A DNA stretch of 64,000 nt, from the NCBI GenBank assembly GCA_018971685.1, contig JAGXAG010000001.1, positions 19,162 through 83,161 on the forward strand. The letters are read 5' to 3'. Shown in pieces: positions 1,579 to 61,710 of the stretch (within the stretch, counting starts at the first letter, position 1; every line of letters begins with the position of its first letter). Below the pieces are notes generated by a model. It saw nothing but the letters and a program-made list of their open reading frames with translations. It ran no database searches and had not been told where the DNA came from. This DNA is from Patescibacteria group bacterium. Its GTDB lineage: Bacteria > Patescibacteriota > Minisyncoccia > Phycocordibacterales > PALSA-1337. Position numbers and translations under genes: made by a program.

Positions 1579-1584
1579 GGTTTT
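1559..1584. repeat. GC-rich palindromic element, short variant (AAAACCCCACCGGTCGGTGAGGTTTT); likely terminator
   Basis: Near-perfect palindrome sharing the CACCGGTCGG core with six other copies in the window. Overlaps the stop of the 1096..1578 ORF. Confidence 0.6.
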
Positions 1585-4539: not shown

Positions 4540-4722
4540 ATGCTGCCACAAGAAGCCATAGATGAGTTCAAAAAGCTCTATAAGGCACGCTTCGGGGTCG
4601 ATCTCACCAATGAGGAAGCGTCTTTCCGAGCCAATAACCTCGTGAATCTGTACGAGGCTGTTTATGATACTTCCTGTGGCAAGCAAAGCGAGGCTCCTGA
4701 ATCTAAACCATGCCAGCCATGA
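4540..4722 (+). CDS. hypothetical small protein (60 aa)
   Basis: ORF-track entry immediately downstream of the inverted repeats. Overlaps the start of the next gene. Confidence 0.3.
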   Translation: MLPQEAIDEFKKLYKARFGVDLTNEEASFRANNLVNLYEAVYDTSCGKQSEAPESKPCQP

Positions 4723-5135: not shown

Positions 5136-5142
5136 CACCAAA

Positions 5143-6291: not shown

Positions 6292-6337
6292 AGAAAATCA
6301 GCTTGGCTTCCATGCCAAATAAGCACATAATATCAAC

Positions 6338-7963: not shown

Positions 7964-7997
7964 AAGGGAGTTGCTCTACCAGCTGAGCTATGGGCGC
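7925..7997 (-). tRNA. tRNA-Lys (anticodon UUU)
   Basis: Manual fold: GCGCCCA acceptor, GCTC/GAGC D-stem, ACTCC-CTTTTAA-GGAGT anticodon arm, GTTGG-TTCGACT-CCAAC T-arm. 73 nt; CCA not encoded. Confidence 0.75.
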
Positions 7998-13679: not shown

Positions 13680-13708
13680 CCTACGCACCGGTCGGACCGG
13701 TGCGTAGG
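13680..13708. terminator. GC-rich palindromic element (CCTACGCACCGGTCGGACCGGTGCGTAGG), likely pilB terminator
   Basis: Perfect 14-bp arms, 7 nt after the pilB stop. Member of the repeat family. Confidence 0.55.
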
Positions 13709-24344: not shown

Positions 24345-25615
24345 TTGCCTGAAGAAAATTTTTGGCTAAACGAACTGTTTACTTTGAGCAGTTCGTCTTC
24401 CAAGTTCTGTTTTAATACTGGATCCTGGATGTCTTTTATCGATGTTTGTATTTTATTAAGCTCATCAACCGTAGTCGACTTGAAATCAGTAATTGTAAAA
24501 TAGTCTTGTCCTACCCAAACCCGAGATTGCGCTAATCCAAAAAACTGTGGATCTATGGTCGCACTGTTTATTTTAATTGATTCTCCCTGTAGCTTAAGCA
24601 TAAGCTGATCGGCGTTGGCGTTATCGTTTATACCACCGGGTTTACTTATAGAGTCATATTCTCCCAATTGCGTCAGCTGTGCATTTCGAGTATCTCTTTG
24701 TTGGTCTATAAAGTTTATACCATTGTTAATTTGCTCATCTATACTTTTTGCCGAGATCGAATTATCCAGATTTTGTGCGTTTATATTTTGAATTGTATTC
24801 GAAATACCGCCGTTACTCATGATTGATTTTCCAGTCAAAACGATCATATTTGCTTGTGCGTCGTTTATCTTTTTGTCGATTTGAGCCATCTGCACCTCTG
24901 ACGGTAAGGTGTCTATCTTACTTTGTAGATCTGTTTTCTCTTGAAGTAATTGGTTTACCGTATTTTTGGCTTGCTGAGCTTGGTCTACATATTCTTGTCC
25001 AACGGCATTATATTTTTGTGCCTCCGCATTTAACTGATCAAATAATGTTAGCGGTGACTCCTGTTGTGTAGCTGGGACAGATATGGGCGGTATGCTGGCG
25101 GGAATTGCGACGAGTTTGGGATTGACGGTCTTCAGGATGAGATAAGAGCCGAGGACCATTAGTAATCCCCAAATGGCGTTCCAGAATTTGTCTTTGCCGG
25201 CACTCTTCTTATTCCACGCGTCCGAAGTCATATATTCAAACCCGCCCCAGACCATCATGAACACGGCGGCGACGGCGGATAGGGCGATCAATAGGTTGAA
25301 TGCGTAAATAAAGAAAGTACTCAAATCAACGGTTGTCTGAGGTGCGCCGGCGCCTCCGGGACAATCTACCGTCTTACTCATTCCGCCACCGCCGGGCAGA
25401 TCAACGCTGTAAGTATATGGTATGCACGGCAACGGTTCCAATAAGGTATAACTTTTTACACCGGCAGATGTTACCGTTGGTGTAGGTGTTGGAGTTGGAG
25501 TAGGCGAGTTAGATTGTGCCGCGGATATATTCAAGGTCAATAAAAACACCGAGAGTAACAAGAAAAATGTTCTGAAAAAGCGGCGATATGTTGTTTTGTG
25601 AAGATTATATGCCAT
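24341..25615 (-). CDS. pilin-like protein: signal peptide, PT repeat, Cys pair, two-helix hydrophobic hairpin (VirB2/TrbC-like topology) fused to about 300 aa of coiled coil
   Basis: Start set at MAYNLHK; the track ORF runs to 25747. Topology LSTFFIYAFNLLIALSAVAAVFMMVWGG...FWNAIWGLLMVLGSYLIL. Confidence 0.4.
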   Translation of the reverse strand: MAYNLHKTTYRRFFRTFFLLLSVFLLTLNISAAQSNSPTPTPTPTPTVTSAGVKSYTLLEPLPCIPYTYSVDLPGGGGMSKTVDCPGGAGAPQTTVDLSTFFIYAFNLLIALSAVAAVFMMVWGGFEYMTSDAWNKKSAGKDKFWNAIWGLLMVLGSYLILKTVNPKLVAIPASIPPISVPATQQESPLTLFDQLNAEAQKYNAVGQEYVDQAQQAKNTVNQLLQEKTDLQSKIDTLPSEVQMAQIDKKINDAQANMIVLTGKSIMSNGGISNTIQNINAQNLDNSISAKSIDEQINNGINFIDQQRDTRNAQLTQLGEYDSISKPGGINDNANADQLMLKLQGESIKINSATIDPQFFGLAQSRVWVGQDYFTITDFKSTTVDELNKIQTSIKDIQDPVLKQNLEDELLKVNSSFSQKFSSGK

Positions 25616-26678
25616 TGTAGTTATTAAAAGTTGTGCTAGTGGCGGTTTGAGAACCATTGTCGGAAAAGACGGCAGAGAAACCATTAGATGCGCTTTGGAG
25701 AATATCTTTGGAGTTTTCGACGCGAAGCTGTATGTTGGAAGAGCCACTTTGGCCGGCCGGCGCGCGCAGGACGATCGACTGGCTGGCGGAAAGCGCCGCT
25801 TGAGACAAGGAATTTACCATCCAAGAAAAAGATAAATCATTCGTGTTGCCGGCCAGTCCGTTGAATCCATAAGGAACCGCCAAGACTGAAAGCTCGCCGC
25901 TGGAACCCAAACCGACACTGTTCCCTATCGCTTTATTATACAACGGTCCATATAAAGGGTCGTTATTGTAAAATTGGATGAATGGACTGCCGGCTTGCAA
26001 AATAACAGTCTTTTCAGCCGAAGCAGTGCCATCGCGGGTAGTGACCTTCAGGTTAATCATTCTGGGGCGTGGCACAACCTCGTCTGTCCAGATAAAAACT
26101 TGTTTGCCATAGCCGCTTGCGGATTGGACGACTTTTGTGTCTTTGGTCCACTGATACACCAGTGTTTTCGGATCATATTCTACGCCGGATGAATTGGCGA
26201 TATGGGGAATAGCGATTACTTTGTAGGTGTTTTGATAGACCAACGGTATTTTGCCTTGGAAGAAAGGCGGCGTATAGCCGTCGCTTTCTATAATAAAATC
26301 AATACTGCCGGTAGTTACGGTGATATTCGTGCTCAAGGTTTTGCCGTCCGGCGTGGCGGCTGATACTGCCACGGCAAGCTTTTTGCCCAGGTCGGGCGCT
26401 ATCACTTGGATCGAGGTGACGCCTATGCCTTTTTGGTATGTGTTGCCGTTCAAAGTCCAAGTGATATTGGATGAATTCAAGTCCGCAATGTAACTTTCGG
26501 CCGTAATCGTCAAATTTTGCCCGGGCGTTGGGTTATCGGTTGAAAGTTTCAGGTCTATTCCTTGAATGGAAGTCGGCACGCCTTGCGCGAAGGTGAACAA
26601 GAAAGGCAACATAACAATTGTTGTCATCCCTGCGAATGCGCTGACCCAGAATTTTACCGAAAAAACCAGAGGTCTCAT
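25605..26678 (-). CDS. secreted hypothetical protein (signal peptide; Ig-like/beta-rich)
   Basis: Start set at MRPLVFSVKFW...; the track ORF runs to 26765. Ser/Thr/Asn-rich. Confidence 0.45.
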   Translation of the reverse strand: MRPLVFSVKFWVSAFAGMTTIVMLPFLFTFAQGVPTSIQGIDLKLSTDNPTPGQNLTITAESYIADLNSSNITWTLNGNTYQKGIGVTSIQVIAPDLGKKLAVAVSAATPDGKTLSTNITVTTGSIDFIIESDGYTPPFFQGKIPLVYQNTYKVIAIPHIANSSGVEYDPKTLVYQWTKDTKVVQSASGYGKQVFIWTDEVVPRPRMINLKVTTRDGTASAEKTVILQAGSPFIQFYNNDPLYGPLYNKAIGNSVGLGSSGELSVLAVPYGFNGLAGNTNDLSFSWMVNSLSQAALSASQSIVLRAPAGQSGSSNIQLRVENSKDILQSASNGFSAVFSDNGSQTATSTTFNNYNGI

Positions 26679-26733
26679 TAACAATATTGTACCAATATCG
26701 GAAAAAACTTGCGAAGTTGGTTGTGGAGAGTAT

Positions 26734-27228
26734 TCAAGTCTTAGACGCGCGCCTGATGCCGTCATTTACCAAAGGTTTGGTATTGGCGTTTCTATATGCC
26801 GAAGGGTCGTAAGTGTTTGCCGTTTGCGTAACCATCTGTGGCTGGCGCACGCCGTCCTTATAGAGTGGTTGCTGTACCGTATTTGATAACATTTCCTCCT
26901 GTTCCTTTTGCGCTTGCAGTTCCGCGTCTTCCTGCTTGACTGACCGCTGTATATACCAAATATCGACGATCCAAAAAGAAGCAATGCCGCCGGTAAGTTC
27001 TCCTATACCTGCCACCCCAACCAGCGAGATCAATCTTCCCGGTCGTTTTATCATTGACACGCCGCGAAGCTGGAAATATACGCCGATAAGCGCGCCGCAA
27101 GCCGGATCGAATATCATATTTATTACCTCGCCTATTCCGGTGAAATCAATGACATACTGTATAATGTCTATTATTCCGGTAATTCCATATAAAAACCACC
27201 ACTCCGTTTTTCCGATTTTCGATGCCAT
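26734..27228 (-). CDS. hypothetical small membrane protein
   Basis: 164 aa, 3-4 TM helices. Inside the T4SS-like operon. Confidence 0.45.
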   Translation of the reverse strand: MASKIGKTEWWFLYGITGIIDIIQYVIDFTGIGEVINMIFDPACGALIGVYFQLRGVSMIKRPGRLISLVGVAGIGELTGGIASFWIVDIWYIQRSVKQEDAELQAQKEQEEMLSNTVQQPLYKDGVRQPQMVTQTANTYDPSAYRNANTKPLVNDGIRRASKT

Positions 27229-27251
27229 AATTCTGAATTATAGCACGGCAA

Positions 27252-29066
27252 TTATTTTCCCGATTCCTCCAATTGCCTCTTGGCCTCTTTGATATCCATA
27301 AGCTGCTGCGGATTGGTCGTGATAATCTGGTCTTCCGTGTATGATCCGACGATCTTGATCGCCACATGCTTTAGCCCCACGAAGAATATGCCTTCGCCGA
27401 CATCTGATTCAAGGAGCAAATACTTCTCTTCGTCGGTCAGGTTGAAAGTTCGCTGAATATAATCGATGACCGCCGGCGACTGCTTGAGCAAGACTTGTAT
27501 CGAAGAGTTCGTGACGATCGGCATGCCATAAGGCGATTTCAAGAAGTCGTCGACATCCTGGGTTATAGTGGCAAGTCCCAAGAAGTATTTGCGGCCTCTT
27601 TTCGCCAAACCGAATAGGAATGAAGCCGTGTCTTCGGATTTCATCATCCACCAAGCTTCGTCGATGACCAGTAGGCGCTTTTTCAGATTTTTGCGAATGG
27701 CGTTCCATATGTAGTGAGTGATCAAGTACATGGCCACCGGCTTCAGCTCATCCTCCATGTCCCGGAGCGAAAACACGACGAATTTCTTGTTAATGTCGAT
27801 GTTGGACGGACGGTTGATGAAGCCCGACCAAGTGCCCTTGGTGTACTTGGATAACCTTTCAACCAGCGAGTCTGCACCCTCCATACCGGCTAAGACAAGT
27901 TCGAAGTCGGAGAGCAGCGGCGGTTCGACACTGCGAAAATCAGAATCGGGAGTTATGTCTTTCAAGGCGTAAGTCTCAGTTATGGCGCGGTCGATGATGG
28001 CGTCTTCTTCCTGGGTCAAGCCGCCCAACATTATCCGGAACAATCCGACCAAATTGATGATGTTTGAGCGCAAGACATCTGAGGCGGACTCGTCCTCTCT
28101 CGGTATCGGCAGGTCGAATGGGTTGATATGATGCTCGGAATTGAGCGAAATGTTGAAATATTTGCCTCCGGTCGCACCCGCCATGTACTCGTATTCTTTT
28201 TCCGGGTCGATCACGATGACATCCGTATCGAACATAAGCGTGCGCAAGATTTCCAGCTTTGTGCAATACGATTTGCCAGCGCCGGCGACCGCGAAAGTCA
28301 CCGAATTGTAATTTTCGAGCGAGAAACGGTCGAAAAGCACCAGTGAAGAATTGTGGCGGTTGATGCCGTAAAGAATTCCTTTGTCGGAAGTTAGGTCGAA
28401 AGACACGAACGGGAACAAGCTGGAGAGCGGCGAAGAATTCAGCTTCGAATGTACGCTCAACTGATCGTCGCCCATGGGCAATACGCTTTTGAAGCCCTGT
28501 TCTTGCTGGAACAACGCCGGTTTCAAGTAGACAAGCTTCGATTCGAGGATCGACTTGATCTCCGATTCGAGCTTGTCCAATTCGCCTTCGGAATCGGCGA
28601 AAATCGTTATATATACGCCGACATCGAACAGCCTTTCTTGCGCCTGCATCAGCTGATCGCGCAAGGCCTCTAGGTCTTGGTAGGCGGTGTCCAGGGCCGG
28701 ATCGCGCACCAATCCGCGCTCTTCCCTTCTCGATATCTGGCTTTGAACCTCGGCTACTTTCTTCTGGAAATGGCGCAGGATTTTAGCCGTGTCTACCGGA
28801 TGGATGAATACGGAAATATTAAAGACCTTGTCCAAATTTATAATCGGCGCGAACCAGCTTTCTTGCAGGAATCTGGGATATGAAATGACGAACAGTGTGC
28901 GCCCGACCTTCTCTCCCAGATTCAGGTCTTTCGGGCTGACTTTGAGCGCCGAGGGCGCGATGATGTCTTTCAATTCAAGCACGCCGGCCTGATAGATTTC
29001 TTCGGGCAGGATTGATACTATTGGCGACTGCTCTTTTCTCTTGAATATGTTGTTGAAGAATGACAT
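27252..29066 (-). CDS. virB4: type IV secretion ATPase VirB4/TrbE/CagE family (C-terminal ATPase part)
   Basis: Walker A FAVAGAGKSYCTK. Walker B RLLVIDEAWWMM. FLGLATITQD motif. Confidence 0.85.
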   Translation of the reverse strand: MSFFNNIFKRKEQSPIVSILPEEIYQAGVLELKDIIAPSALKVSPKDLNLGEKVGRTLFVISYPRFLQESWFAPIINLDKVFNISVFIHPVDTAKILRHFQKKVAEVQSQISRREERGLVRDPALDTAYQDLEALRDQLMQAQERLFDVGVYITIFADSEGELDKLESEIKSILESKLVYLKPALFQQEQGFKSVLPMGDDQLSVHSKLNSSPLSSLFPFVSFDLTSDKGILYGINRHNSSLVLFDRFSLENYNSVTFAVAGAGKSYCTKLEILRTLMFDTDVIVIDPEKEYEYMAGATGGKYFNISLNSEHHINPFDLPIPREDESASDVLRSNIINLVGLFRIMLGGLTQEEDAIIDRAITETYALKDITPDSDFRSVEPPLLSDFELVLAGMEGADSLVERLSKYTKGTWSGFINRPSNIDINKKFVVFSLRDMEDELKPVAMYLITHYIWNAIRKNLKKRLLVIDEAWWMMKSEDTASFLFGLAKRGRKYFLGLATITQDVDDFLKSPYGMPIVTNSSIQVLLKQSPAVIDYIQRTFNLTDEEKYLLLESDVGEGIFFVGLKHVAIKIVGSYTEDQIITTNPQQLMDIKEAKRQLEESGK

Positions 29067-29069
29067 ATT

Positions 29070-29705
29070 TTATGTTATTTGTATCGGCTTCTCGGTCTCG
29101 CCGGGGTTGAATAACTTATAGAACAATTCTACCACTTCTTCCGTGCCCAATTCCGCGGTTCTGATGCCGCATCTGACCAGTCCCTGTTCGACCACTGAGA
29201 CTCTCTGTTCCAGTTGCGTGCGGTATTCATTGAACTGTTCGTCCGGGGTCGGCCCCTGGCCGCCGTTTTTCCGACCGGGCAGGAATTTTGAAACAGGGTT
29301 TTTGCTCGCGGTCATGATCGGCGGGTCATAAGGTACGACAACGAAGAAGCTCTTGGTCATAATGTTGGTGTTTTCGACGAAAGTCTTGATGAAGTCTATG
29401 TATTCGCGGACCTGGATCTTCATCAGCTCGGTAGTCTGTTCTTTGTACCGCCCTTCCAACAGGGCGATATACGGCCGTATGTCTAGCTTCTTCGATTGCA
29501 CGAATATTTGCACCGAAAAATCCAGCGAATTCAGGAAATTCTGGAACTGGAACATGATGGAATTTTGTTCATCGGCGGACTTCAGGGCGAAATTCAAGGA
29601 CGATGCCAAGACGACGGATCTCATGCCGCCGTTACGCAGGATGATCACACCGTCGCGAATTTCGCGGATTGGCACGAAGTCTTGGGTTGTTTGTGATTTG
29701 GTGGC
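29070..29705 (-). CDS. VirB4 N-terminal (CagE_TrbE_VirB) domain protein, encoded separately (split VirB4)
   Basis: Start set at MATKSQTTQDF (ATGA overlap with the PrgI-like stop); the track ORF runs to 29900. The FVPIREIRDGVIILRNGG pattern is typical of the VirB4 N-domain. Confidence 0.55.
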   Translation of the reverse strand, partial: ATKSQTTQDFVPIREIRDGVIILRNGGMRSVVLASSLNFALKSADEQNSIMFQFQNFLNSLDFSVQIFVQSKKLDIRPYIALLEGRYKEQTTELMKIQVREYIDFIKTFVENTNIMTKSFFVVVPYDPPIMTASKNPVSKFLPGRKNGGQGPTPDEQFNEYRTQLEQRVSVVEQGLVRCGIRTAELGTEEVVELFYKLFNPGETEKPIQIT

Positions 29706-29707
29706 CA

Positions 29708-30145
29708 TTATTTCTGGTTCTTGTTCGAATAAACGCTCTCTTTGATATCCAGACTCCACGCCAAGTCTTTCAATTTGCTGTCGGATATTTTCGGCACCAT
29801 TACGGAAGCGTAATTCCGGATCTCTTTTGCGGCGGCTTGGCCGCTTGCCGGCGGCTTCTTGTCTTCTTTTTTCCATATGTACAGCTTGCCCCCCCGCCAA
29901 TATTTGAACGCCGACTCGGCGACACTCAACAACGGGAAGTGGTTGTAGACTTTGTAGAAAGCGAGCGCCGCGGATACGGCCATTATTACAAGCATTGGGA
30001 TCAAAGCCAATGCCAAGTTGCCGATGATGACATAGGTTATGAATGACAAGCCTCCCCCGCCGGCCAGGTATATGAATTGCTTCAAGGTGAGCGGGCCGAA
30101 AATTTTGTCCTCTACCTCTATGAATTGGGGAACTTGGAAGCGCAT
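29708..30145 (-). CDS. PrgI/VirB3-like small T4SS membrane protein
   Basis: MRFQVPQFIEVEDKIFGPLTLKQFIYLAGGGGLSF followed by 2 TM helices. PrgI family pattern. Confidence 0.55.
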   Translation of the reverse strand: MRFQVPQFIEVEDKIFGPLTLKQFIYLAGGGGLSFITYVIIGNLALALIPMLVIMAVSAALAFYKVYNHFPLLSVAESAFKYWRGGKLYIWKKEDKKPPASGQAAAKEIRNYASVMVPKISDSKLKDLAWSLDIKESVYSNKNQK

Positions 30146-30216
30146 TGATTATATTATAGCGGAATATTCGGTTTAACGCTCTCGTTTGTTGCCGTACATG
30201 TATATTTGGTGGGGAT

Positions 30217-30987
30217 TTATTGTATGGGTTCGCGATACGGATCTTTCTCGTAAGGTTTATTTTTCACCCCTGCCTCTTTTGGTTGCTCCATTTGCTTTTT
30301 CACCTCCACCGGCAAATTCGCCGGCACGGTACCTTTTTGTTGTTCCTCATCCTCTTTCACATCCACCGCGCCCTTTTTCTCGTCCGACACAATTCTCGTA
30401 ACCTTTTCCGTGACTGTCGCGGTCGTGTTTGCCAACAAGTGGTCGACTATCGGGTCCGTATGTTCCTCATCCTTCCAAATTTTTCCATATCTACCGCCCC
30501 CGCCCCCGATTTCATTGCCGTTATCGTTGCCATTTCCGCCATCATTGTCACTCTCGTCCTTCACGATCTCAAATTCCCCCGCCCGCTCCACCGCCGCAAT
30601 ATCGCGTTCTTTCTGCGCGGTGTTCGGGGAATATATTTTTTGTTCCAGTCCATCTTCCGGAGTGATTTGTTCCTCCATTTTTTGCAGGTGCTGTCGAATA
30701 GGATTAAATACTTCCGAATTGATGTCAGTGGCGATTTCCAACGCCGTTTTTCTGTCTATTGAACATCTCGATGCCATATGGCTTGTAAAATCAGCCGATC
30801 TTGCCAAACCCAACATCACCAATCCCACTTCGTCGACCAATTCTCCCGTCTGATCTATCAACAGTCCGTGTTTTTTCGCCACAGCTTCGATTTTGTCATT
30901 CATTTCCGTAGAAGTTATTGCCTCCCGCACTTCCGCCGGGAGCTTTTCAAACTGATTTTGTATTTCTTCTGAAGTAAATTGTCTCAT
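30217..30987 (-). CDS. hypothetical acidic/Gly-Asn-rich protein
   Basis: 256 aa. Start overlaps the VirB6-like stop (30984-30987). Confidence 0.45.
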   Translation of the reverse strand: MRQFTSEEIQNQFEKLPAEVREAITSTEMNDKIEAVAKKHGLLIDQTGELVDEVGLVMLGLARSADFTSHMASRCSIDRKTALEIATDINSEVFNPIRQHLQKMEEQITPEDGLEQKIYSPNTAQKERDIAAVERAGEFEIVKDESDNDGGNGNDNGNEIGGGGGRYGKIWKDEEHTDPIVDHLLANTTATVTEKVTRIVSDEKKGAVDVKEDEEQQKGTVPANLPVEVKKQMEQPKEAGVKNKPYEKDPYREPIQ

Positions 30988-32891
30988 GTTTTTGGTTTTT
31001 CTTCTTTCCTTTCGCCTCCTCCACCCTCCTCCTCTTTCAGTTTATCTTGCAAGGCCTTTGCAAGTTTGGCCATGTCTTTTCCACCCTTCACTTTCTCGCC
31101 CTCATCTATATCCTTCTGTATTTCATCAAGCTGTTTCTGATATTTTTCTACGATTTTAGCCCTTTGTTCTTTCAGGCTCTTCACTTTTTCTAACTCAGAC
31201 TCGTCTTCTGTGGCCTCAGCGATATTCTGTGCGTACGCAATTTGCTTATCTAATTCTCCCGTCTCTTCTTTAATCTTTGCATTTATCTCAGCTCTTTTTC
31301 CATAGTTCTTTTTAAGATTATCAGCTAACGAATCGCGAGATAATTTCGTAGCTGATTCGCGAGCGCCTCTGCTAGTCAACATTCCGTAGAAGACGCTTCT
31401 CTTTGGCAGATTCTGTCTAAATCCTTCTTGTGCTCTTTCGGCTCTTTCTTTTGCCGCATTGAATTCCGCATCGGTAGTGTAATCGCTTCTTTCTACTTCT
31501 CCAAGTCTCTTATGCATAGCCTCGATATCTTTCTTTTCTTTCTTTAGGGCGGCATCATATCCGCCTTTCTTCCCACCAAATCCAGCCGAACTCACCTTCG
31601 ACAACCCCTTTGAAACCATCATGCCCGTCGCAGGACTAAAGGCCGCAAGACGAGCCACGGCGCCACTTTTATTTAATGCATAAGCAGCTTGGCCTGCAGT
31701 ATTTCTTCCAATAAATTCTCCAACCCTACTTCTGGCCCAGTTGCTGAATTTACCGGTTATTGTCCCCGATGCTCCAGAAAACTGCAGTGCGGTTGCAAGC
31801 GGAATGTTTATGAGGAAGATAGATACGGCAAAACCGACGAATAGTTGTAGATACGGCACATACCAGTAAGTGCCGGTGGTTCCGACCAAACCGGTTTGTT
31901 GTCCCAGACTGCTCAGGTTCATAGCCATCATGAGTTGTACTACCACATAGGTGAGAAAGAGATAGACCGGTAGAAAGATCAGATTGGCTTTCAAATGATT
32001 CCACCATTTTCCAGACATTTCTTTTTGTATTTGTGGTAGAACAAAACCGGCAATCCACAGAGGAGAAAATGCTAGTAGAAGGATCAGAATAACTACACGC
32101 CAAAGGGCCGCCGCGGCCGCGCCTATGAAGCTAAGTCCTGCGAAAATTGTAACCACAATTGCCGCAGAGTTGATCAAAATAAGGCGAATGCCGGCGTCTA
32201 TTCGAGTTCCCATGTTTTGTAATTGTCCTTTGTTTCCCCACCACTGCGTAACATCTAATGCACCCATGAATACATTTGCTATGCCGCCGTTTCCGTTTAT
32301 GCTCGTGATTGCCCCGATAGAGCAGGTAATATAAGTATTCACCCCAGCATTATTTTCACATGAGGATAGAGAGGCAGATGAAGACATGGCATTGTAAAAC
32401 TCCAATGACACAATATTTGAAGCGTCGATAAGCACTCTGGTAAAAAAGAAGCTGAAATTAATCAAGATGCCGGCAATGACTATATTCTTTATAAGGGTAC
32501 CCCAGCTGGCCGGTTTCAAGTCAAGGATCATCTGTATGGCGGCGATCAATATCAGAAAGATCAAAACCATTGTAGCTAGATCCCTTACAGTTCCCCATAT
32601 CTGGAATATTGCCGGAGTGTTATTTATGAATACACCCAAGTGAGTTGTAAGATACATAGCAAAATTCAAGACAACAGCAGCTAGAGAAAGTCCGAAGCTA
32701 ACTATTGTGAGAGCGAAATATATTAGATAACCGATAACTTGTAACGCGAATCCAATGGTTAAATCTTGAAGTCCTAAATATCCCGACACGGCTTGTGCCA
32801 ATTGTGCATTTGCCACATGCCAACTTCCTATCCACGCAAAAATCACCATAGATATTACGGGAACAATTTTTTTGTAATTTATCTTGGGCAT
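30984..32891 (-). CDS. VirB6/TrbL-like polytopic membrane protein with C-terminal charged coiled-coil tail
   Basis: At least 8 TM helices over about 450 aa, then a K/E-rich tail. TrbL/VirB6-like architecture. Confidence 0.55.
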   Translation of the reverse strand: MPKINYKKIVPVISMVIFAWIGSWHVANAQLAQAVSGYLGLQDLTIGFALQVIGYLIYFALTIVSFGLSLAAVVLNFAMYLTTHLGVFINNTPAIFQIWGTVRDLATMVLIFLILIAAIQMILDLKPASWGTLIKNIVIAGILINFSFFFTRVLIDASNIVSLEFYNAMSSSASLSSCENNAGVNTYITCSIGAITSINGNGGIANVFMGALDVTQWWGNKGQLQNMGTRIDAGIRLILINSAAIVVTIFAGLSFIGAAAAALWRVVILILLLAFSPLWIAGFVLPQIQKEMSGKWWNHLKANLIFLPVYLFLTYVVVQLMMAMNLSSLGQQTGLVGTTGTYWYVPYLQLFVGFAVSIFLINIPLATALQFSGASGTITGKFSNWARSRVGEFIGRNTAGQAAYALNKSGAVARLAAFSPATGMMVSKGLSKVSSAGFGGKKGGYDAALKKEKKDIEAMHKRLGEVERSDYTTDAEFNAAKERAERAQEGFRQNLPKRSVFYGMLTSRGARESATKLSRDSLADNLKKNYGKRAEINAKIKEETGELDKQIAYAQNIAEATEDESELEKVKSLKEQRAKIVEKYQKQLDEIQKDIDEGEKVKGGKDMAKLAKALQDKLKEEEGGGGERKEEKPKT

Positions 32892-32893
32892 GA

Positions 32894-34567
32894 TTATCGA
32901 TTAAACAAGAACGAACTCCCCGCGCTATCGGGGAAACTGTCGCAGGATTGCTGGAACTTAGCCGCTTCGTCGGCGAACGGCTTCAGGGCATCTTGGACGG
33001 TCTTAAGGTCAGTTTGTGAACCTTGAACATCGTCCTGTGATATGTACAAGGAAGAAACATAAGTCGAATTGTCTGATCCGCTCGCACCTGAACCGTTAAA
33101 TCGTGTAGAAATAGCATTGATATCGTCTACGGTCGAGGCTGAGTTTATGTCGGAAATCAATTGCTTCGCAGCTACGACTTTTTGGTCGGCCGCCGCCATT
33201 TTCACTCCGTAAATGGTTTCTAACGGCTCAACTTTCGTAGCAATGGCCGAATCGATAGCCGCCATCTGCCCACGCGCATAATTCAAGGCTGCCTGGTTAA
33301 CGAAGGCTGTTTGTGTTGTAGAGCCGACTTTGCCGTCAAAGCAAGTCTTTGCTGCCGAGTACTGATTTTTGGTTGCGGTGATAGAGTCGGTAATTTGCTT
33401 GTAAGTTTGGTCGTATTGTGAAGCGAGCGAATAATAGTCGTTTGCCGCGGACAAAATGGATTGTTTGGCGCTTGCGAGTTGCTCGTTTTGCGATTGTTGT
33501 TGCAATTGATAAATAGCGCCAGGCAAGCCACTACTTCCTCCCGGGCTACTGGCAGTATGCAAACCGCCGGTCAGAACTTTGGTTACTAGTTGTCCGAACA
33601 ATGCTCCGACCACTTCGTTTATGGAATTGGCCAAGTTTAGCTGATCCTGCGGAATGCCCAAGGATTTGTTGATGGAACCGGCGATAACCGATCCCGGCGT
33701 CTGTGTTTCGCAATCTTGGTAGCTGACGGTTCCGTCTTTGTTCTGTTGTCTCGTAAGCCCCGCGTTCTCGTACGACATGGCCGTGTTATAGTTATCCGGC
33801 GAGAGGTCGTTCGGGTCTATAGTATCCACCGTTTGACATTTCTGCCAGGACAAGAACCCGCCACCTTGGGCCAATTGCTCGTGATATTGTCCTTGTTTTG
33901 ACGATATCCTAGACAAAAGGTCACTTTGGGCCACGAGATATGCACCAACCGGATTATTCTGCGGCTGGGTAGTCATGGTTATGAATGCCGGCCAGCCGCC
34001 CTGCTTGAAATCACCGTTCATAAAGCCCTGAATGCTGTAACCGTTAACCGTCGAATTTGCCACGCTCTGAATGACGGTGGATAAGGTGCAAGTGTAGCGC
34101 GGATACAAGTTAGCTTGTCCCAAAGCGAGTGCCAAGCGTATGTCGACATTGAACGGCGTACACAAATTCGCCAGTATGCCGGTCTGAGCTATGAAGTCTC
34201 CAGTTACCTGATCGGCCACATCAAGGAAAAAAGCTTGTGGATTTGTCAAAAACGCCGGATTGCCTTGAAAACCAGAATTAATCCAATTGACTACGCTAGT
34301 CGTGACCTCTTGGAGCGCAATCTTCGCCACTGTCCAAGCCACGCCATCCCAGGTGCATTTGGCACTTTTCATTGCGTCAGTGCTGTTGTCTTGTACTGGT
34401 ACCCTCTGGCTGAAGCTCACATTCAGACTTTTGCAACCGAACAAGCTACCCAGTTGCGCGTGTGCTGGGACCGGGTTGAAAATTAATACTGTCGCCAGCA
34501 TAGGCATAATTGCCGCAATCAGGCACAACGAGGCAAGCAGTGAATTTTGGCCATCAGATTTGAACAT
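32894..34567 (-). CDS. large secreted hypothetical protein (signal peptide, Cys-containing, Gln/Ser-rich)
   Basis: 557 aa. MFKSDGQNSLLASLCLIAAIMPMLATVLIF signal/anchor. Abuts neighbours with 2-nt gaps. Confidence 0.5.
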   Translation of the reverse strand: MFKSDGQNSLLASLCLIAAIMPMLATVLIFNPVPAHAQLGSLFGCKSLNVSFSQRVPVQDNSTDAMKSAKCTWDGVAWTVAKIALQEVTTSVVNWINSGFQGNPAFLTNPQAFFLDVADQVTGDFIAQTGILANLCTPFNVDIRLALALGQANLYPRYTCTLSTVIQSVANSTVNGYSIQGFMNGDFKQGGWPAFITMTTQPQNNPVGAYLVAQSDLLSRISSKQGQYHEQLAQGGGFLSWQKCQTVDTIDPNDLSPDNYNTAMSYENAGLTRQQNKDGTVSYQDCETQTPGSVIAGSINKSLGIPQDQLNLANSINEVVGALFGQLVTKVLTGGLHTASSPGGSSGLPGAIYQLQQQSQNEQLASAKQSILSAANDYYSLASQYDQTYKQITDSITATKNQYSAAKTCFDGKVGSTTQTAFVNQAALNYARGQMAAIDSAIATKVEPLETIYGVKMAAADQKVVAAKQLISDINSASTVDDINAISTRFNGSGASGSDNSTYVSSLYISQDDVQGSQTDLKTVQDALKPFADEAAKFQQSCDSFPDSAGSSFLFNR

Positions 34568-34569
34568 GA

Positions 34570-35469
34570 CTATTGAATGAGTGTATTCATAATATCTTGA
34601 TTAAAATCAAACGATACACCATGTACTTTGAGCGAGTCAGTCATACCTTTTAGAGCGTCAACCAAGTCTTGTATTCCTTTCGGGTGGGCGCTTACGCCGG
34701 CCAAGCCCTTAACAGGATCAGCCGCAAGCGATCTCAATTGTTCGGCCGCGAATTCAAGCGTGGCAAAAGCGTTGATCAACGCGGCGTCTTGTGAAGACAA
34801 CTCTTGTGGTACTGGTACATTCAACAGTTCGGAAACTATGCGTTTATAAGCGACGACAATGGGATCTATCCCTCCAAGAACCGACGGATCGTTGTTCGTC
34901 AGATATTCCTGAACCACGGCCGATTCATTTTTCGTCACATCGTACGAATTGATTATGCCGACCAGCGCATTGCTGAACGCCTGCACGGAAGCAGCATCGG
35001 TCGCGCCTGTTATGCGAAGATCATCCGCGGTATAAGTCTTCGGCGGAGAATCGTTAAACGATGAGTTGACTGTATTTGCCATGGCCTGGCTTATCATATC
35101 AGAATTGGTGTCAAGCCCGGCCTGCTTCAACATCGTGTATCTGGAAAAGAAATCGCGCCCAAGCCTATCTGTATCAGTCAAAACGGCGCGGTTATTCGTG
35201 TTCGATACACTTGACCTGTAGTTTATCGTTTTTCCGGTCGAGGGAGCCGTTGTTGTACCGCTATCAAAAAATTCCTTTTGCCAATTTGCCGACGAGTTGT
35301 CCGCCGAGATTTTATAGTCGTAATGGGCCGATGCCGCCAAGTCCGGCCGGCTTTGCGCGTCCGCGGAACCTATTTGCCCGGAATTCACATAAGCAGCCAC
35401 GCCTATTACAATTGCGGCGCTTGCGACGAATACGAATATCGTTTGTCGGCGCGAGTAGAAAGACACCAT
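34570..35469 (-). CDS. membrane-anchored hypothetical protein (N-terminal TM plus about 270-aa extracytoplasmic domain; VirB8-like size and topology)
   Basis: Start at MVSFYSRRQTIFVFVASAAIVIGVAAYV; the track ORF runs to 35490. First gene of the minus-strand operon. Confidence 0.4.
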   Translation of the reverse strand: MVSFYSRRQTIFVFVASAAIVIGVAAYVNSGQIGSADAQSRPDLAASAHYDYKISADNSSANWQKEFFDSGTTTAPSTGKTINYRSSVSNTNNRAVLTDTDRLGRDFFSRYTMLKQAGLDTNSDMISQAMANTVNSSFNDSPPKTYTADDLRITGATDAASVQAFSNALVGIINSYDVTKNESAVVQEYLTNNDPSVLGGIDPIVVAYKRIVSELLNVPVPQELSSQDAALINAFATLEFAAEQLRSLAADPVKGLAGVSAHPKGIQDLVDALKGMTDSLKVHGVSFDFNQDIMNTLIQ

Positions 35470-37943: not shown

Positions 37944-40025
37944 CTAAAAATCAATAAAAATCGCCTTGGCACCCGTCGGTTTCTCCGGGACATGTTCCTC
38001 GAGCGACTCTTTCGCGATATCATCAATAAACTCCGACGGCGCACTAACCCTCTGCGCCCCATAAATATTCCGCACGATCGCGTAGCTCAAAAACACCTTT
38101 TTCTTCGCTCTCGTCAGCGCTACATAGAAAAGCCGCCGCTCCTCTTCCTCATCCGCCCGGCTCACTTCCTTTTCGTCCGCGCGTTTGAACGGGAATAAAT
38201 CCTGTTCCAGCCCGGCGACGAAGACCGCGTCAAATTCAAGGCCTTTCGACGCATGCACTGTCATCAGCTTCACCGCATCTTCGTTTTTTTCTAGTTCGTC
38301 CTGATCCGTCGCCAGCGCCGCGTTTTCCAGGAATTTTTCTATGCCGCTTGCGCCGTCTTGCGCCGTTTGCACAGTCCCCGCATGCGCAAACGCTCCCGCG
38401 GCAGGCAGATCATCGTATTGCGTCGCCACCGAAACCAATTCTTGAATGTTCCTCAGCCGTTCCTCGTCATCAATGTCCCCTTTTTGGAATACCCGCGACA
38501 TTCCGGTTTCTTCGATGATAAATTTCACCGCCTCTGACGGCTTCTTTTCCATGATCTCTTTCTTGATATCGCCGAGCAGTTTCCAGAAGCCGGCGACTTT
38601 TTCTTTCATTGCCGGCGGCAGATCCGTCACGCCGGACGCCAGTTTTATGACCGTCGCTTTGCCTATGCCGCGCGGCGGCACATTGATGATTCTCGCTATG
38701 TCGCCCCAACTTTCGCTCGGTTCACCGGCGGGTTCGCTGAGGTCCGACTTCAGTATACTGATGTCCGACCTCAGCGAACCGTCGTGATTCAGCGCCGCGC
38801 GGACATAAGAAAGCACATCTTTTACCTCTTTCCGTTCGAAGAAGCGGGTGCCGATCAATTGGTATGGTATGTTTTTCTTTATAAACGCTTCTTCCAACGC
38901 CCTCGATTGAAAATTCGCCCGATACAGCACCGCGATTTCCCCGGGTGAAATGCCCGAAGCAATCAGCCTCTTGGCGGTGTCGGCGATCGCGCGCGCCTCG
39001 TCATTTTCGGTGTATGAAACCAGTAGTGAAATTTTTTCGCCCTCGATATTGTCCGTATAGAGCGTCTTGTCTTTGCGCAGAATGTTCTTCTTGATGATGT
39101 CATTCGCCGCCGACAGAATGATCTTCGTTGAGCGATAATTTTTCTCCAGCGTAATGACCGTCGCATCCGGATAATCTTTCTCGAAATTCAATATGTTTTC
39201 GATCGTCGCGCCGCGCCAGCCGTAAATATTCTGGTCCGCGTCGCCGACCGCGCAGATATTCGGCCGCGCCGCGCCGGCCAAGACTTGCCCGTCAGTCAGA
39301 TATTTGGCGATCTTGTATTGTACCCTATTCGTGTCTTGATATTCGTCTATATGCAGATATTGCCAAAGGCCGCCGTAATATTTGCGCATACCCTCGCGTT
39401 TTTCCAAGAATTGAGCCGTCTTCAGAAGCAAATCGTCGAAATCAAGCGCTTTTTCTTTGGCCAGAATCAATTCGTATTTTTCCCAGACGCCGGCCGCCAT
39501 TTCCTCGATGAAATCTTTGGCCGCGCCGAAATATTCGAGCCGGCCGATCCCGTCGCCTTTGGCCAGCGATATCTTGTTCAAGATAAATCCCGGATCGAAT
39601 TTTTTCGGATCGATCGACGACTGTTCCATCGCCTCTTTTATCGCCCTCTTCGAATCCGCCCGGTCGTATATCGTAAAATGCCTCGTCAAACCGAACTCTC
39701 TGGCATGCGCGCGTATGATCTGCACACCCAAGGAATGAAAAGTCGAGACGAACGGCCTTTCGCCGCGCGAATTTGACATCGAGACAGGCAAATTCAAGTC
39801 TTTGTCATTTGCGATCAGGCTCGCCACGCGGTCCCGCATCTCTCTTGCCGCCTTATTGGTGAAAGTTATTGCCAGGATGTTGTGCGGCGCCACTCCATTC
39901 CTGATCAAGTTCAATATTCGGTGCGTTATTACCCGCGTCTTGCCCGAACCCGCCCCGGCAATTATCAGCACCGGCCCATCAATCGTGTTCACCGCCTTTA
40001 ATTGTTCCGGATTTAACCCATCCAT
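37944..40025 (-). CDS. uvrD: ATP-dependent DNA helicase UvrD/PcrA family
   Basis: LNPEQLKAVNTIDGPVLIIAGAGSGKTRVITHRI, i.e. helicase motif I. SF1 motifs throughout. Confidence 0.9.
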   Translation of the reverse strand: MDGLNPEQLKAVNTIDGPVLIIAGAGSGKTRVITHRILNLIRNGVAPHNILAITFTNKAAREMRDRVASLIANDKDLNLPVSMSNSRGERPFVSTFHSLGVQIIRAHAREFGLTRHFTIYDRADSKRAIKEAMEQSSIDPKKFDPGFILNKISLAKGDGIGRLEYFGAAKDFIEEMAAGVWEKYELILAKEKALDFDDLLLKTAQFLEKREGMRKYYGGLWQYLHIDEYQDTNRVQYKIAKYLTDGQVLAGAARPNICAVGDADQNIYGWRGATIENILNFEKDYPDATVITLEKNYRSTKIILSAANDIIKKNILRKDKTLYTDNIEGEKISLLVSYTENDEARAIADTAKRLIASGISPGEIAVLYRANFQSRALEEAFIKKNIPYQLIGTRFFERKEVKDVLSYVRAALNHDGSLRSDISILKSDLSEPAGEPSESWGDIARIINVPPRGIGKATVIKLASGVTDLPPAMKEKVAGFWKLLGDIKKEIMEKKPSEAVKFIIEETGMSRVFQKGDIDDEERLRNIQELVSVATQYDDLPAAGAFAHAGTVQTAQDGASGIEKFLENAALATDQDELEKNEDAVKLMTVHASKGLEFDAVFVAGLEQDLFPFKRADEKEVSRADEEEERRLFYVALTRAKKKVFLSYAIVRNIYGAQRVSAPSEFIDDIAKESLEEHVPEKPTGAKAIFIDF

Positions 40026-45003: not shown

Positions 45004-45026
45004 TAATCATATTATACAGAGAAAAT

Positions 45027-45059
45027 GAAAAGCCCGCACCTTTTCGATGCGGGCTTTTC
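45027..45059 (-). terminator. Rho-independent terminator downstream of pnp (AAAAGCCCGCA...TGCGGGCTTTT)
   Basis: 11-bp GC-rich stem flanked by A/T runs, 22 nt after the pnp stop. Bidirectional shape. Confidence 0.6.
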
Positions 45060-45080
45060 ATAAGAACGATATTTTTCGAT

Positions 45081-47234: not shown

Positions 47235-47250
47235 TAGTTTTATTTGCGCG

Positions 47251-47283
47251 GCTCACCGCACCGGTCGGACCGGTGCGGTGAGC
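47251..47283. repeat. GC-rich palindromic element (GCTCACCGCACCGGTCGGACCGGTGCGGTGAGC)
   Basis: Perfect 16-bp arms. Lies between the TspO stop and the pnp start. Confidence 0.6.
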
Positions 47284-47316
47284 CGTTTTTCGCCCGCGAA
47301 TTTCAGACTTGAAGAG

Positions 47317-47337
47317 TACACCGGTCGGACCGGTGTA
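47317..47337. repeat. GC-rich palindromic element (TACACCGGTCGGACCGGTGTA)
   Basis: Second copy, 34 nt from the first. Confidence 0.6.
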
Positions 47338-53462: not shown

Positions 53463-53821
53463 TATTGAAGCTCTACAGAGCCGTATTAAGTTAAATCTTC
53501 ACATAAATTTTTTTATGCGTACCCAGGTCGGACCTCAAAGATAAAACCGCGTCAATAGCGGTCTCGAGAATAATTGAGTACGCCTGACGCGGTCTCGAAG
53601 CTCGATAAAAGAACTTATCCAAGTCATTCCTTGGTAAGTGACATGCATCTTTCCTCGAATCAATGCTCTCCTGTTGGGAGGCTTATTTTTGTTGAGAAAG
53701 CATATGTCACCTTTTGTCACCAAGCAATAAGAGGACGAAAACAAACATTCGAGCTTCATGAAAAGGAGTGCGGTACTACCCTTACCGCAGAGTTTTTGAA
53801 AAGATCAATGCTCGTTTTCTC

Positions 53822-56634: not shown

Positions 56635-57084
56635 ATGAAGAAGATCGTACACTTTTTCGACAAGTTGGAAGATAGGATACGCGAGCATTTGAGCCACTAT
56701 CCTATTCTTTATACGATCATAGGGGGCGTAGCCATCGTGCTTTTCTGGAGAGGAGTATGGCATACGGCTGATATGTTGGAAGGACAAGGCGGCTGGCTCG
56801 GTTTTATATTCTATGAGCCAATAAATCTGTTGATCGTTGTCATCATACTGCTTATGACTGGTCTTTTCGTGTCATACTTTATCGGGGATACTATACTCAT
56901 GAGTGGTTTGAAACATCAGAAAAAATCCACTGAGAAAACGGAAAGAGAAGTACAGGAAGAAGAGTCAGAATTAAAAAATATAAGATCTACCATAAAAGAG
57001 ATGAAAAAGGAGGTTGATGAGATAAAGGACGCAGTTAACACCGGTCGGACCCGTGCCACCGGTCAGACCGGTGTAAGATCATGA
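56635..57084 (+). CDS. hypothetical membrane protein with C-terminal coiled coil; last about 14 codons encoded by a palindromic repeat
   Basis: Start at MKKIVHFFDK; the track ORF begins at 56551 over the tRNA-Pro 3' end, which is implausible. Two TM helices. Confidence 0.45.
   Translation: MKKIVHFFDKLEDRIREHLSHYPILYTIIGGVAIVLFWRGVWHTADMLEGQGGWLGFIFYEPINLLIVVIILLMTGLFVSYFIGDTILMSGLKHQKKSTEKTEREVQEEESELKNIRSTIKEMKKEVDEIKDAVNTGRTRATGQTGVRS
57038..57074. repeat. composite GC-rich palindromic element (ACACCGGTCGGACCCGTGCCACCGGTCAGACCGGTGT)
   Basis: Overlaps the 3' end of the upstream CDS. Identical copy at 57453-57489. Confidence 0.6.
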
Positions 57085-57452: not shown

Positions 57453-57489
57453 CACCGGTCGGACCCGTGCCACCGGTCAGACCGGTGTA
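57453..57489. repeat. composite GC-rich palindromic element, second copy
   Basis: Identical 37-mer, 4 nt after the CsaA-like stop. Confidence 0.6.
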
Positions 57490-58102: not shown

Positions 58103-58140
58103 AAAACCGCTCCGATGTACATCGGAGCGGTTTTGTATTT
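58103..58140. terminator. bidirectional Rho-independent terminator (AAAACCGCTCCGATG ta CATCGGAGCGGTTTT)
   Basis: 13-bp perfect stem with an A-run 5' and a T-run 3'. Sits between the convergent DUF4375 and hup genes. Confidence 0.7.
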
Positions 58141-58460: not shown

Positions 58461-58652
58461 TGTTTTTATTATTAATACTGATAATTTGGTCTCGGCCCGT
58501 CCGCCGCTTGGGTAAGAGCGAACGGAATCGAGTCTCGAACCTGTACCCACTATTATATATTAAGCCGTATTTTAGGCAATGCCTTGTCAACGGGGCTGTG
58601 AACTATGCAATGATATCCAGAATCTGTCACACACCGGTCCGATCGGTACAAA

Positions 58653-60444: not shown

Positions 60445-61005
60445 TCAATTCTTCGCAAACCCGAATTGACCCTTTGAAGGTACCGGTTCATTCAATAGAT
60501 GTTTGATTATTTGCAAGACCTGTGCCAATTGTTTGCCTTGTTTTTCTTGTTCGTTCTCAAGGATCTGCATCTTGGCGGCCAATTCCTTGTGAGTCGAGAG
60601 TATTTCGCGTAGCTTCATGAAGGCCCTCACTATAAATACGCTTACGGTTACCGCGCGTGGACTCTTGAGAACGGCGGATAACATGGCGACACCGTGTTCA
60701 GTGAAGACGAAAGGTAAATGCGGAGAGAATTTGAGTTTGTTTAGGTTATCACAAATTGTGATAACCTCCTGTTTTTCCTGTTTCGTAAGTCTGAACATGA
60801 AATCCGAAGGGAAACGACGCAGATTTCTTTTCACCGCTTGATTGAGTTGCATTGTAGATACGCCGTACAGGTTGGCGATATCAGCGTCTAGCATAACCTT
60901 AACTCCACGAACCAAGAGTATTCTCCGTTCGATTGTTTCTACAGGTATTGTTATGGAAATGTCTTTCTCAAATGATCTGGGTGACATAGGTAAATCATAC
61001 AACAA
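60445..61005 (-). CDS. ORF6N-domain protein (phage antirepressor-like DNA-binding regulator)
   Basis: VRGVKVMLDADIANLYGVSTMQLNQAVKRNLRRFPSDFMFRLT matches the ORF6N pattern. C-terminal coiled coil. Confidence 0.5.
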   Translation of the reverse strand: MLYDLPMSPRSFEKDISITIPVETIERRILLVRGVKVMLDADIANLYGVSTMQLNQAVKRNLRRFPSDFMFRLTKQEKQEVITICDNLNKLKFSPHLPFVFTEHGVAMLSAVLKSPRAVTVSVFIVRAFMKLREILSTHKELAAKMQILENEQEKQGKQLAQVLQIIKHLLNEPVPSKGQFGFAKN

Positions 61006-61078: not shown

Positions 61079-61678
61079 ATGTCCATACTCATACCAACAG
61101 TCATAGAAAAGAGCAGTTTCGGGGAGAGGGCCTATGATATATATTCGCGCTTGTTGAAAGAAAACATCGTGTTTCTAGGTGGACCGATAGATGACACCGT
61201 CGCCAATATCGTCATCGCGCAACTTTTATTCTTGCAGTCGGAAGACCCAAAAAAGGAAATAAATATGTACATCAATTCGCCGGGCGGTTCGGTCACTTCG
61301 ACCTTGGCCATAGTGGACACGATGCAACATATCAAAAATGACATATCCACAGTATGCGTCGGCATCGCCGCTTCGGGCGCCGCCCTCGTACTGTCTGCCG
61401 GCACCAAAGGCAAGAGAATGTCATTGCCCAATTCCGAAGTCATGATTCATCAACCGATCGGAGGGGCGGAAGGGCAAGCTACCGATATTGAAATAAGCGC
61501 CAAGCATATCTTGAAAACCCGGGCCACGCTGAATAAAATTCTTGCGAAAAATACCGGGCAATCGTTGTCAAAGATTGAGAAAGATGTCGAACGGGACTTC
61601 TTCATGGATGCGGAAGAAGCGAAAAAATACGGCATTATCGATCAAGTCGTAATGAGTCCGAAAATTTCGGCGAAATAA
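61079..61678 (+). CDS. clpP: ATP-dependent Clp protease proteolytic subunit
   Basis: [19 protein letters not shown] (Ser), MIHQP (His). 199 aa. Confidence 0.9.
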
Positions 61679-61710
61679 TATTACACAGGTCGGACCTGTG
61701 TAATATTATT
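61674..61710. terminator. 37-bp perfect palindrome (AATAATATTACACAGGTCGGACCTGTGTAATATTATT) containing the clpP and tig stop codons; bidirectional terminator
   Basis: A-variant of the CACCGGTCGGACCGGTG core. TAA of clpP and TAA of tig (minus strand) sit symmetrically in the arms. Confidence 0.65.

Follow-up and report, generated by a model that had tools for sequence, protein, structure and literature searches.

Are the short GC-rich palindromes that recur along this stretch of DNA transcription terminators fixed at the ends of genes, or are they repeats that have moved about the genome? The stretch (hereafter the window, 64,000 nt) comes from contig JAGXAG010000001.1 of assembly GCA_018971685.1, from a Patescibacteria group bacterium. 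The host genome has a GC content of 42-50%, is ~90% coding, and encodes an RNase Y that is 82-90% identical to proteins of metagenome-assembled genomes (MAGs) labelled "Candidatus Paceibacterota" and "Candidatus Taylorbacteria". An earlier note on the window had described the palindromes as probable hairpin terminators at gene 3′ ends, with signs of a propagating repeat resembling repetitive extragenic palindromes (REPs) or miniature inverted-repeat transposable elements (MITEs). The second part of that description is supported by four observations: a flanked Y1 transposase gene whose product has a TnpAREP-like predicted fold, the same layout in three other genomes, the absence of the elements from orthologous sites of relatives, and derived asymmetries shared among the dimers. 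The palindromes are very probably non-autonomous hairpin repeats of the REP/REPIN type, for whose spread within the genome a single REP-associated tyrosine transposase (RAYT) is responsible. RAYTs are Y1 HUH enzymes acting on hairpins in single-stranded DNA.

Scanning the window for ACCGGTCGGACCGGT on both strands, with up to two mismatches, gave 19 strand-matches at 10 positions, compared with 0.05 expected from dinucleotide-preserving shuffles of the window, and the repeated family proposed earlier is therefore real. The core CACCGGTCNGACCGGTG and its close variants occupy nine loci in the window and 15 loci (~24 units) in a longer stretch of 79.9 kb (window coordinates -6629 to 73273), the flanks of which were taken from the same contig and a sister assembly that is 100% identical; all family counts for this genome rest on these ~80 kb of one genome. 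Six of the loci lie just beyond the window edges, one upstream (E1) and five downstream (E11-E15), and had been missed previously. The commonest 12- to 16-mers in the 79.9 kb all derive from the element. An Rfam scan of the window returned tRNAs only, with no match at the elements.

The repeated unit is a 17-nt palindrome, CACCGGTC-N-GACCGGTG, and the exact 17-mer CACCGGTCGGACCGGTG (CACCGGTC-G-GACCGGTG) begins at 13686, 47259 and 47319. Units are found singly, often within longer palindromic arms that are specific to each copy, or as dimers of two units 1 nt apart, which can fold into one long hairpin. All intact copies are predicted to form strong hairpins, with folding z-scores of -4.9 to -9.4; each 37-nt dimer folds as a single hairpin interrupted by internal mismatches (z -4.9 to -5.5).

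A gene on the minus strand, ~4 kb past the end of the window, specifies a 197-aa protein that is probably the mobilising enzyme of the family, as judged from its sequence, predicted fold and flanking repeats. The protein matches the Pfam Y1_Tnp (IS200-like) model at 27.4 bits (gathering cut-off 23), and its sole NCBIfam match is REP_Tyr_transpos. A sequence-only search of the PDB found nothing and a profile search gave marginal matches only (E 0.05). The AlphaFold model (pLDDT 90.5, pTM 0.87) has as its top PDB fold match 4er8_A, the E. coli REP-associated tyrosine transposase with a REP hairpin (E 4e-6, probability 1.0), followed by the TnpA structures of IS608, ISDra2 and IS200. Four motifs (YHxYNRGAH; CLMPNHFH, the HUH motif; HSGTIFQG; and Y-IHLNP) show no or almost no variation in an alignment of 32 homologues, in which H73-x-H75 and the candidate catalytic tyrosine, Y133, are invariant. 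Homologues number 2,188 at E values up to 1e-5, and those with a named source are mostly from Patescibacteria. Some of them are named "REP element-mobilizing transposase RayT" in the annotation of the Joint Genome Institute (JGI).

Repeats of the family stand on both sides of this gene, the nearest immediately before its start codon, and one unit supplies the last codons and the stop of the gene itself (Table 1). A comparable layout surrounds the homologous genes of three other Paceibacterota, designated L164 (64% protein identity; genome GC 45%; flanking repeat TGAGGTCGGACCTCCAGATCTGGAGGTCCGACCTCA), L167 (58% identity; GC 52%; GAGGTCGGACCTACGTAGGTCGGACCT) and L169 (49% identity; GC 37%; CAGGTCCGACCTCGGTACCGAGGTCGGACCTG). 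All three carry palindrome dimers, one abutting the ATG and another overlapping the stop codon, with scattered solo copies in the vicinity. L167 has two upstream copies, one copy at the stop and dispersed single units, and L169 has two upstream copies, a trimer across the stop and a solo copy nearby. The four genomes have four different stems, and the apex GGTCSGACC is common to the repeats of all of them. Core-encoded tripeptides (RSDL, VRP, GPT and others) occur within the last 18 residues of 28 out of 120 homologues, at a density 19 times that of the rest of the protein. For one homologue (P0230), the tail GRSDLGT had led to a prediction of GATC-type repeats like those of the related genome L131, and this was rejected, as the actual repeats are of the GGTCSGACC type.

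The surroundings of the gene bear on a different explanation, in which the transposase belongs to an autonomous insertion sequence (IS) of the IS200/IS605 type and the dispersed palindromes are its solo ends or MITEs (palindrome-associated transposable elements) derived from it, in place of a domesticated REP/RAYT system. The likeness to IS200/IS605 elements (IS608, ISDra2) and hairpin MITEs extends to the Y1 HUH fold, the HUH and Tyr motifs and the predicted recognition of hairpins in single-stranded DNA: the protein passes the Pfam IS200-like model, TnpA proteins of this group are the next-best fold matches, and IS200/IS605 elements likewise use subterminal hairpins. The gene neighbourhood also differs between genomes, being a pilus cluster here and in L169, and near gyrA in L164 and L167. 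The latter two are, however, syntenic (gyrA/Lactamase_B_3/S1), which suggests vertical inheritance of the transposase. Unlike an IS200/IS605 element, the locus has the same palindrome at both ends instead of distinct left and right ends, it has no tnpB, and many solo hairpins occur without the gene. No second copy of the transposase gene was seen within the accessible ~80 kb, and the identical protein was found on 2 contigs only, the nearest other homologue being 64% identical. TnpAREP is the best structural match, and a length of 197 aa with a C-terminal extension fits a RAYT better than an IS200 TnpA of ~130-150 aa. An autonomous insertion sequence is accordingly considered unlikely. As a separate observation, the transposase gene adjoins or lies within type IV pilus genes both here, next to pilB2/pilC (L159 1-5350, where L159 is the sequence carrying the gene), and in L169 (1907-14489), where the order is pilM-pilB-pilT-pilC-pilins.

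Three syntenic relatives, with RNase Y proteins 86-90% identical, showed no copy at up to three mismatches in 13-21 kb, and at four orthologous sites that were compared the related genomes are without the elements. No spacer separates tig from clpP in L130, and both differ there at the C-terminus; the L130 orthologue of the 149-aa gene ends in ...DVVEGK*, without the 12-codon tail contributed by the element. The dimer in the spacer following tRNA_bind is absent from L130 and L134. The corresponding slot of L131 holds another palindrome, AATACCGAGATCGGATCTCGGTATT, suggesting that sites of this kind have received insertions repeatedly and independently. L131 has a palindrome family of its own, TACCGAGATCSGATCTCGGTA, with three copies in 21 kb, one of them directly after the tRNA_bind stop. 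The L131 copies are found at 6368-6388, 12728-12752 and 16803-16827, and at 6416-6438, representing the TACCGAGATCSGATCTCGGTA family and one GAGGTCTGACCTC-type copy; two L131 palindrome copies are apparently inside an RNA methyltransferase gene. The dimers flanking tRNA_bind were also considered as integron attC-like cassette boundaries, which was rejected because relatives keep the gene in place without repeats.

The dimers share irregularities. The asymmetry GACC[C]GTG-C-CAC is common to four of them (57038, 57453, E1 and E12), and E14 reads GACC[T]GTG-C-CAC; a central A in the second unit is found at 57038, 57453 and E14, and also at E15 when read on the other strand. These shared asymmetries point to a common master from which the dimers were copied, and not to convergent evolution. 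Searches outside this genome were less informative. The exact 17-mer gave, among the matches listed for species-representative genomes, single ones in unrelated high-GC genomes, and the 21-nt sequence YRCACCGGTCGGACCGGTGYR gave 23 single matches in metagenomes, on contigs of 50-71% GC, none with further copies. No relative with this exact repeat variant was found in the metagenome scan.

The position of the copies relative to genes is consistent with repeats that have accumulated at gene boundaries. Ten of the 15 loci are wholly intergenic, in a stretch of 79.9 kb with an intergenic share of 10.5%. Six loci overlap a stop codon or lie within 6 nt of one, five precede a start codon by 5-14 nt (those of pnp, tRNA_bind, H+-PPase, the transposase and pilB2), and two are inside genes, where comparison with solved homologues shows them to be in-frame insertions (uvrD and fpg). 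The earlier statement that no copy is more than 10 nt from a stop codon does not hold at 47249-47285 (166 nt after the tspO stop), 47317-47337 (114 nt from the tspO stop) and 53521-53537 (58 nt after the Exo_endo_phos stop).

The same positions bear on whether the palindromes could be Rho-independent terminators, or 3′ hairpins that stabilise mRNA, kept alike by selection or gene conversion and without any mobility. They do resemble intrinsic terminators in being very stable GC-rich hairpins that often come right after stop codons, and the copy between the convergent genes clpP and tig (61674-61710) has a downstream T-run and was the sole copy flagged as terminator-like by a consensus terminator scan. 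E. coli REPs stabilise upstream mRNA, and it is plausible that the present hairpins may similarly protect mRNA 3′ ends. The clpP/tig copy is, however, the only one with a T-run on the transcribed strand; no other copy is followed by a U-tract in the direction of transcription, five loci lie before start codons and two are intragenic. Canonical terminators unrelated to the family are present in this genome at 45025-45061 (after pnp) and 58103-58134 (between DMP19 and hup). Furthermore, identical sequences of 17 to 37 nt, shared asymmetries and a flanked Y1 transposase in four genomes would be unexpected for terminators that evolved independently. As a general description, "probably hairpin terminators" is not supported, and a family of immobile terminators or stabilisers is judged improbable. 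Targeting of terminators by class C group II introns was also discarded, as there is no intron here, and nothing was found in support of a restriction-site or methylation motif.

Many copies lie just upstream of genes, which could also indicate that GGTCSGACC is the site of some other factor, either a regulator or an uptake receptor like that for the DNA uptake sequence (DUS) of Neisseria, and that the link with the transposase is incidental. Conservation of the core across genomes of very different GC content would agree with this, as would the presence of the transposase homologue in or beside type IV pilus genes in two genomes. The DUS of Neisseria form inverted pairs after genes, and uptake sequences occur at ~1 per kb. 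The density here, ~1 locus per 5-7 kb, is far lower, and the strongly intergenic distribution is likewise unlike that of DUS or uptake signal sequences. No regulator or receptor candidate was identified, the element directly flanks a Y1 transposase in four of the four genomes examined, and the lack of copies at the same genes in close relatives argues against a conserved regulon. A recognition site for a factor other than the transposase is therefore very improbable.

The evidence thus returns to REP/REPIN-type repeats and their RAYT. Systems of this type (with TnpAREP as the transposase) are known in the proteobacterial genera represented by E. coli, Pseudomonas and Stenotrophomonas (PMC3116915, PMC5581495, PMC3479197). 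The present family agrees with them in consisting of short GC-rich palindromes, mostly extragenic, that occur as singles and as doublets folding into one long hairpin, and in having a Y1 HUH transposase gene with copies of the repeat on either side. The HUH motif, candidate Tyr and TnpAREP-like predicted fold (best match 4er8) of the protein also correspond, and the repeat sequence is lineage-specific, varying along with the transposase across the four genomes. The differences are that the host is a Patescibacteria/Paceibacterota MAG, that the 17-nt units are near-perfect with a dimer spacer of only 1 nt, and that the repeats abut the start codon of the transposase gene and encode its C-terminus and stop codon. 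A literature search found no paper linking REP/RAYT with Patescibacteria or the candidate phyla radiation (CPR).

In the mechanism proposed, the enzyme would recognise the hairpin apex GGTCSGACC in single-stranded DNA, and would cut and rejoin hairpin DNA, thereby copying the elements. Copies would persist mainly at gene boundaries, because a 90%-coding genome would tolerate insertions only there. At these boundaries a copy may now and then contribute a stop codon, a C-terminal tail or an in-frame loop, and possibly stabilise mRNA 3′ ends.

Several points weigh against this interpretation. Both mobility and enzyme activity are inferred. The REP_Tyr_transpos match has an equivalog score of 24 bits, far under the cut-off of 80, and the protein is very divergent from proteobacterial RAYTs, with an identity of only 12% to E. 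coli TnpAREP. The GTAG/CGTC tag that is conserved in proteobacterial REPs is not conserved here, the apex GGTCSGACC being the conserved part. In this genome GTAG is limited to 13680-13708 (CGTAGG) and the copy spanning the transposase stop (GTGTAGG), the other copies being flanked by TA, GC or other bases; among the other genomes, the units of L167 carry GTAG and those of L164 and L169 do not. Four of the 15 loci are clustered within 900 bp around the transposase gene, and what can be said of copy number, and of the transposase as a single-copy gene, is limited to ~80 kb of the genome. The sister MAG and Logan contigs are 99.99-100% identical to the window, and comparison with them revealed neither a recently gained copy nor a recently lost one. 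Finally, three copies (13680, 47249 and 61674) have unexplained, copy-specific perfect palindromic extensions (CCTACG...CGTAGG, CGGCTCACCG...CGGTGAGCCG and AATAATATTA...TAATATTATT, respectively), which simple copying does not account for. They could have arisen when units inserted into the middle of hairpins already present, or through palindrome "correction" by template switching.

Table 1. Palindromic elements of the window and the transposase gene with its neighbouring repeats (window coordinates unless marked L159; z, folding z-score).
Position	Strand	Element	Folding	Gene context
1559-1584		Doubtful member, hairpin AAAACCCCACCGGTCGGTGAGGTTTT	-6.3 kcal/mol, z -1.9	Between convergent genes; encodes ...PTGR*
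13680-13708		Single unit, core CACCGGTCGGACCGGTG in perfect 29-nt palindrome (CCTACG...CGTAGG)	-18 kcal/mol, z -7.5	6 nt after pilB1 stop, 297 nt before ruvB; no T-run on either strand
38731-38780		50-nt inverted dimer, older-type variant TGAGGTCCGACTTCA / TGATGTCCGACCTCA	-23.6 kcal/mol, z -7.5	Inside uvrD, in frame; encodes ...GSLRSDISILKSDLSEP...
47249-47285		Single unit in 37-nt perfect palindrome (CGGCTCACCG-core-CGGTGAGCCG)	-25.6 kcal/mol, z -8.7	14 nt upstream of pnp start; T-run on + strand, where no upstream gene exists
47317-47337		Minimal single unit TACACCGGTCGGACCGGTGTA	-9 kcal/mol, z -4.9	tspO-pnp spacer, in tandem with 47249-47285
53521-53537		Weak relative, 11-nt palindrome AGGTCGGACCT only (core GGTCGGACC)	No significant fold	After Exo_endo_phos
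57038-57074	+	Dimer of 17-nt units CACCGGTCGGACCCGTG-C-CACCGGTCAGACCGGTG	One long hairpin, -14.4 kcal/mol, z -4.9	Last 12 codons of 149-aa gene, whose stop 8 nt downstream overlaps tRNA_bind start (ATGA); ends 6 nt before tRNA_bind start codon
57453-57489	+	Dimer matching 57038-57074 (57039-57074 = 57453-57488)	Identical 37-nt dimer by sequence	3 nt after tRNA_bind stop, 40 nt before tRNA gene
58631-58647	-	Degenerate single unit, 15/17 matches (TACCGATCGGACCGGTG on - strand)	No significant fold	5 nt after RNase Y stop; spacer not alignable with spacers of relatives
61674-61710		A-variant CACAGGTCGGACCTGTG (61684-61700) in 37-nt palindrome with AT-rich arms (AATAATATTA...TAATATTATT)	-16 kcal/mol, z -9.4	Between convergent clpP and tig
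L159 4583-4617		Dimer		139 nt upstream of transposase ATG
L159 4717-4751		Dimer		5 nt upstream of transposase ATG
L159 4757-5350 (about window 67924-68517)	-	Transposase gene, 197 aa
L159 5332-5348		Single unit		Encodes transposase end ...ITPVRPV* including stop codon
L159 5449-5483		Dimer		96 nt downstream of transposase gene

Examination of the individual copies (Table 1) modified the earlier inventory in some respects. The intact members of its list of seven were retained, and 1559-1584 is now doubtful: this weak hairpin has only 10 nt (CACCGGTCGG) in common with the core, is flanked by an A-run and a T-run, and by its sequence appears more likely to be an ordinary bidirectional terminator than a deleted derivative of the element. 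No exact protein record was found for the overlapping 160-aa open reading frame (1096-1578), the recorded start being different. Two genes had been credited with C-termini encoded by the element; the ...NTGRTRATGQTGVRS* tail of the 149-aa gene was upheld, while ...PTGR comes from the doubtful member. Degenerate relatives reported near 53525 and 58629 are indeed present (53521-53537 and 58631-58647) and neither has a significant fold. The membership of the former is uncertain; its core, GGTCGGACC, is the core of RAYT-flanking repeats in other genomes. The description of the clpP/tig copy as holding both convergent stop codons symmetrically was accurate, as its arms provide the TAA of each gene. 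A match at 12915 was rejected as an element since the letters there encode the Walker A motif (TGPTGSGK) of a PilB-type ATPase. Codons for this motif in PilB-type genes (12914-12930, and pilB2 at ~69676, beyond the window) mimic the core and produce false positives here and in GC-rich genomes.

The two intragenic copies have visible consequences for the proteins. The uvrD dimer, which had been missed previously, coincides in the alignment with ~23 extra residues relative to PcrA (1pjr), and its unit resembles the RAYT-flanking repeats of L164. Within fpg, which lies upstream of the window, a dimer contributes TGPTCGTGRT in frame, in a loop without counterpart in MutM. The residues added by these in-frame insertions amount to about 17-23 in uvrD and about 12 in fpg. 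Rickettsia palindromic elements (RPE) are 100-150 bp repeats that insert in frame into protein genes and have no known cognate transposase. The peptide additions in uvrD, fpg and several C-terminal tails recall these elements; unlike RPE, the units described here are 17-50 nt long and are associated with a Y1 transposase.

Some other features were seen along the way. The region 4540-7997 of the window carries genes for an HTH_17 protein, a tyrosine integrase and a Zn_ribbon_recom recombinase beside a tRNA gene (7925-7997, minus strand), and is probably an integrated mobile element. A long minus-strand cluster (22986-35469) encodes PrgI, TraC-like and VirB4/TraG-like P-loop proteins, together with many genes without a Pfam match, and resembles an apparatus for type IV secretion or a conjugation-like process. 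It adjoins the dnaA/dnaN/rpmH origin region (~18.8-22.9 kb). The hup leader (58470-58540, minus strand) contains a GC-rich segment of ~60 nt between the conserved hup promoter and the start codon, with no Rfam match. This segment is common to this genome and L131, is absent in L130 and L134, and may represent either a small insertion or a leader with a structure of its own. Perfect palindromes of 25-31 nt lie inside the ORF6N-domain gene at 60743-60767 of the window, L130 5817-5843 and L131 7850-7880; they differ in each genome (…TCACAAATTGTGA…, …GTCGCAAATTGCGAC…) and are unrelated to the REP family. L134 has a reverse-transcriptase (RVT_1) gene (1076-2026) beside nusA that is absent from the window and may be a group II intron or retron.

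A system of this type is already known, and automatic annotation already calls some of the homologues RayT. Work on REP/REPIN-RAYT systems has been almost wholly confined to Proteobacteria, where they are viewed as long-lived, vertically inherited "replicators" in genomes. The dispersed hairpins and the flanked Y1 transposase gene with intact catalytic motifs would make up a full system in a genome of the Patescibacteria. Together with its relatives in at least three further Paceibacterota and ~2,000 homologous transposases, it would extend REP/RAYT to ultra-small, ~90%-coding genomes, from which repeats would be expected to be purged. A more far-reaching proposal is offered tentatively, as a possibility of rather low likelihood: that in Paceibacterota (CPR) the REPIN-RAYT partnership is ancient and largely vertical, with recognition through the apex (not GTAG), and that the repeats now serve as modules at gene boundaries. 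The stop codons and C-terminal tails that they supply (that of the transposase itself among them), the spacers that they occupy before start codons and the UvrD/Fpg loops would all be examples of such co-option. On this proposal the repeats may also autoregulate the transposase gene, whose start and stop they embed. The conserved 9-nt apex with variable stems offers a simple and testable hypothesis of substrate recognition by the enzyme. In the annotation of CPR MAGs, the repeats give rise to C-terminal tails that look artificial (RSDL, TGRT and others) and to in-frame insertions; they also mimic terminators, and could cause assembly breaks.

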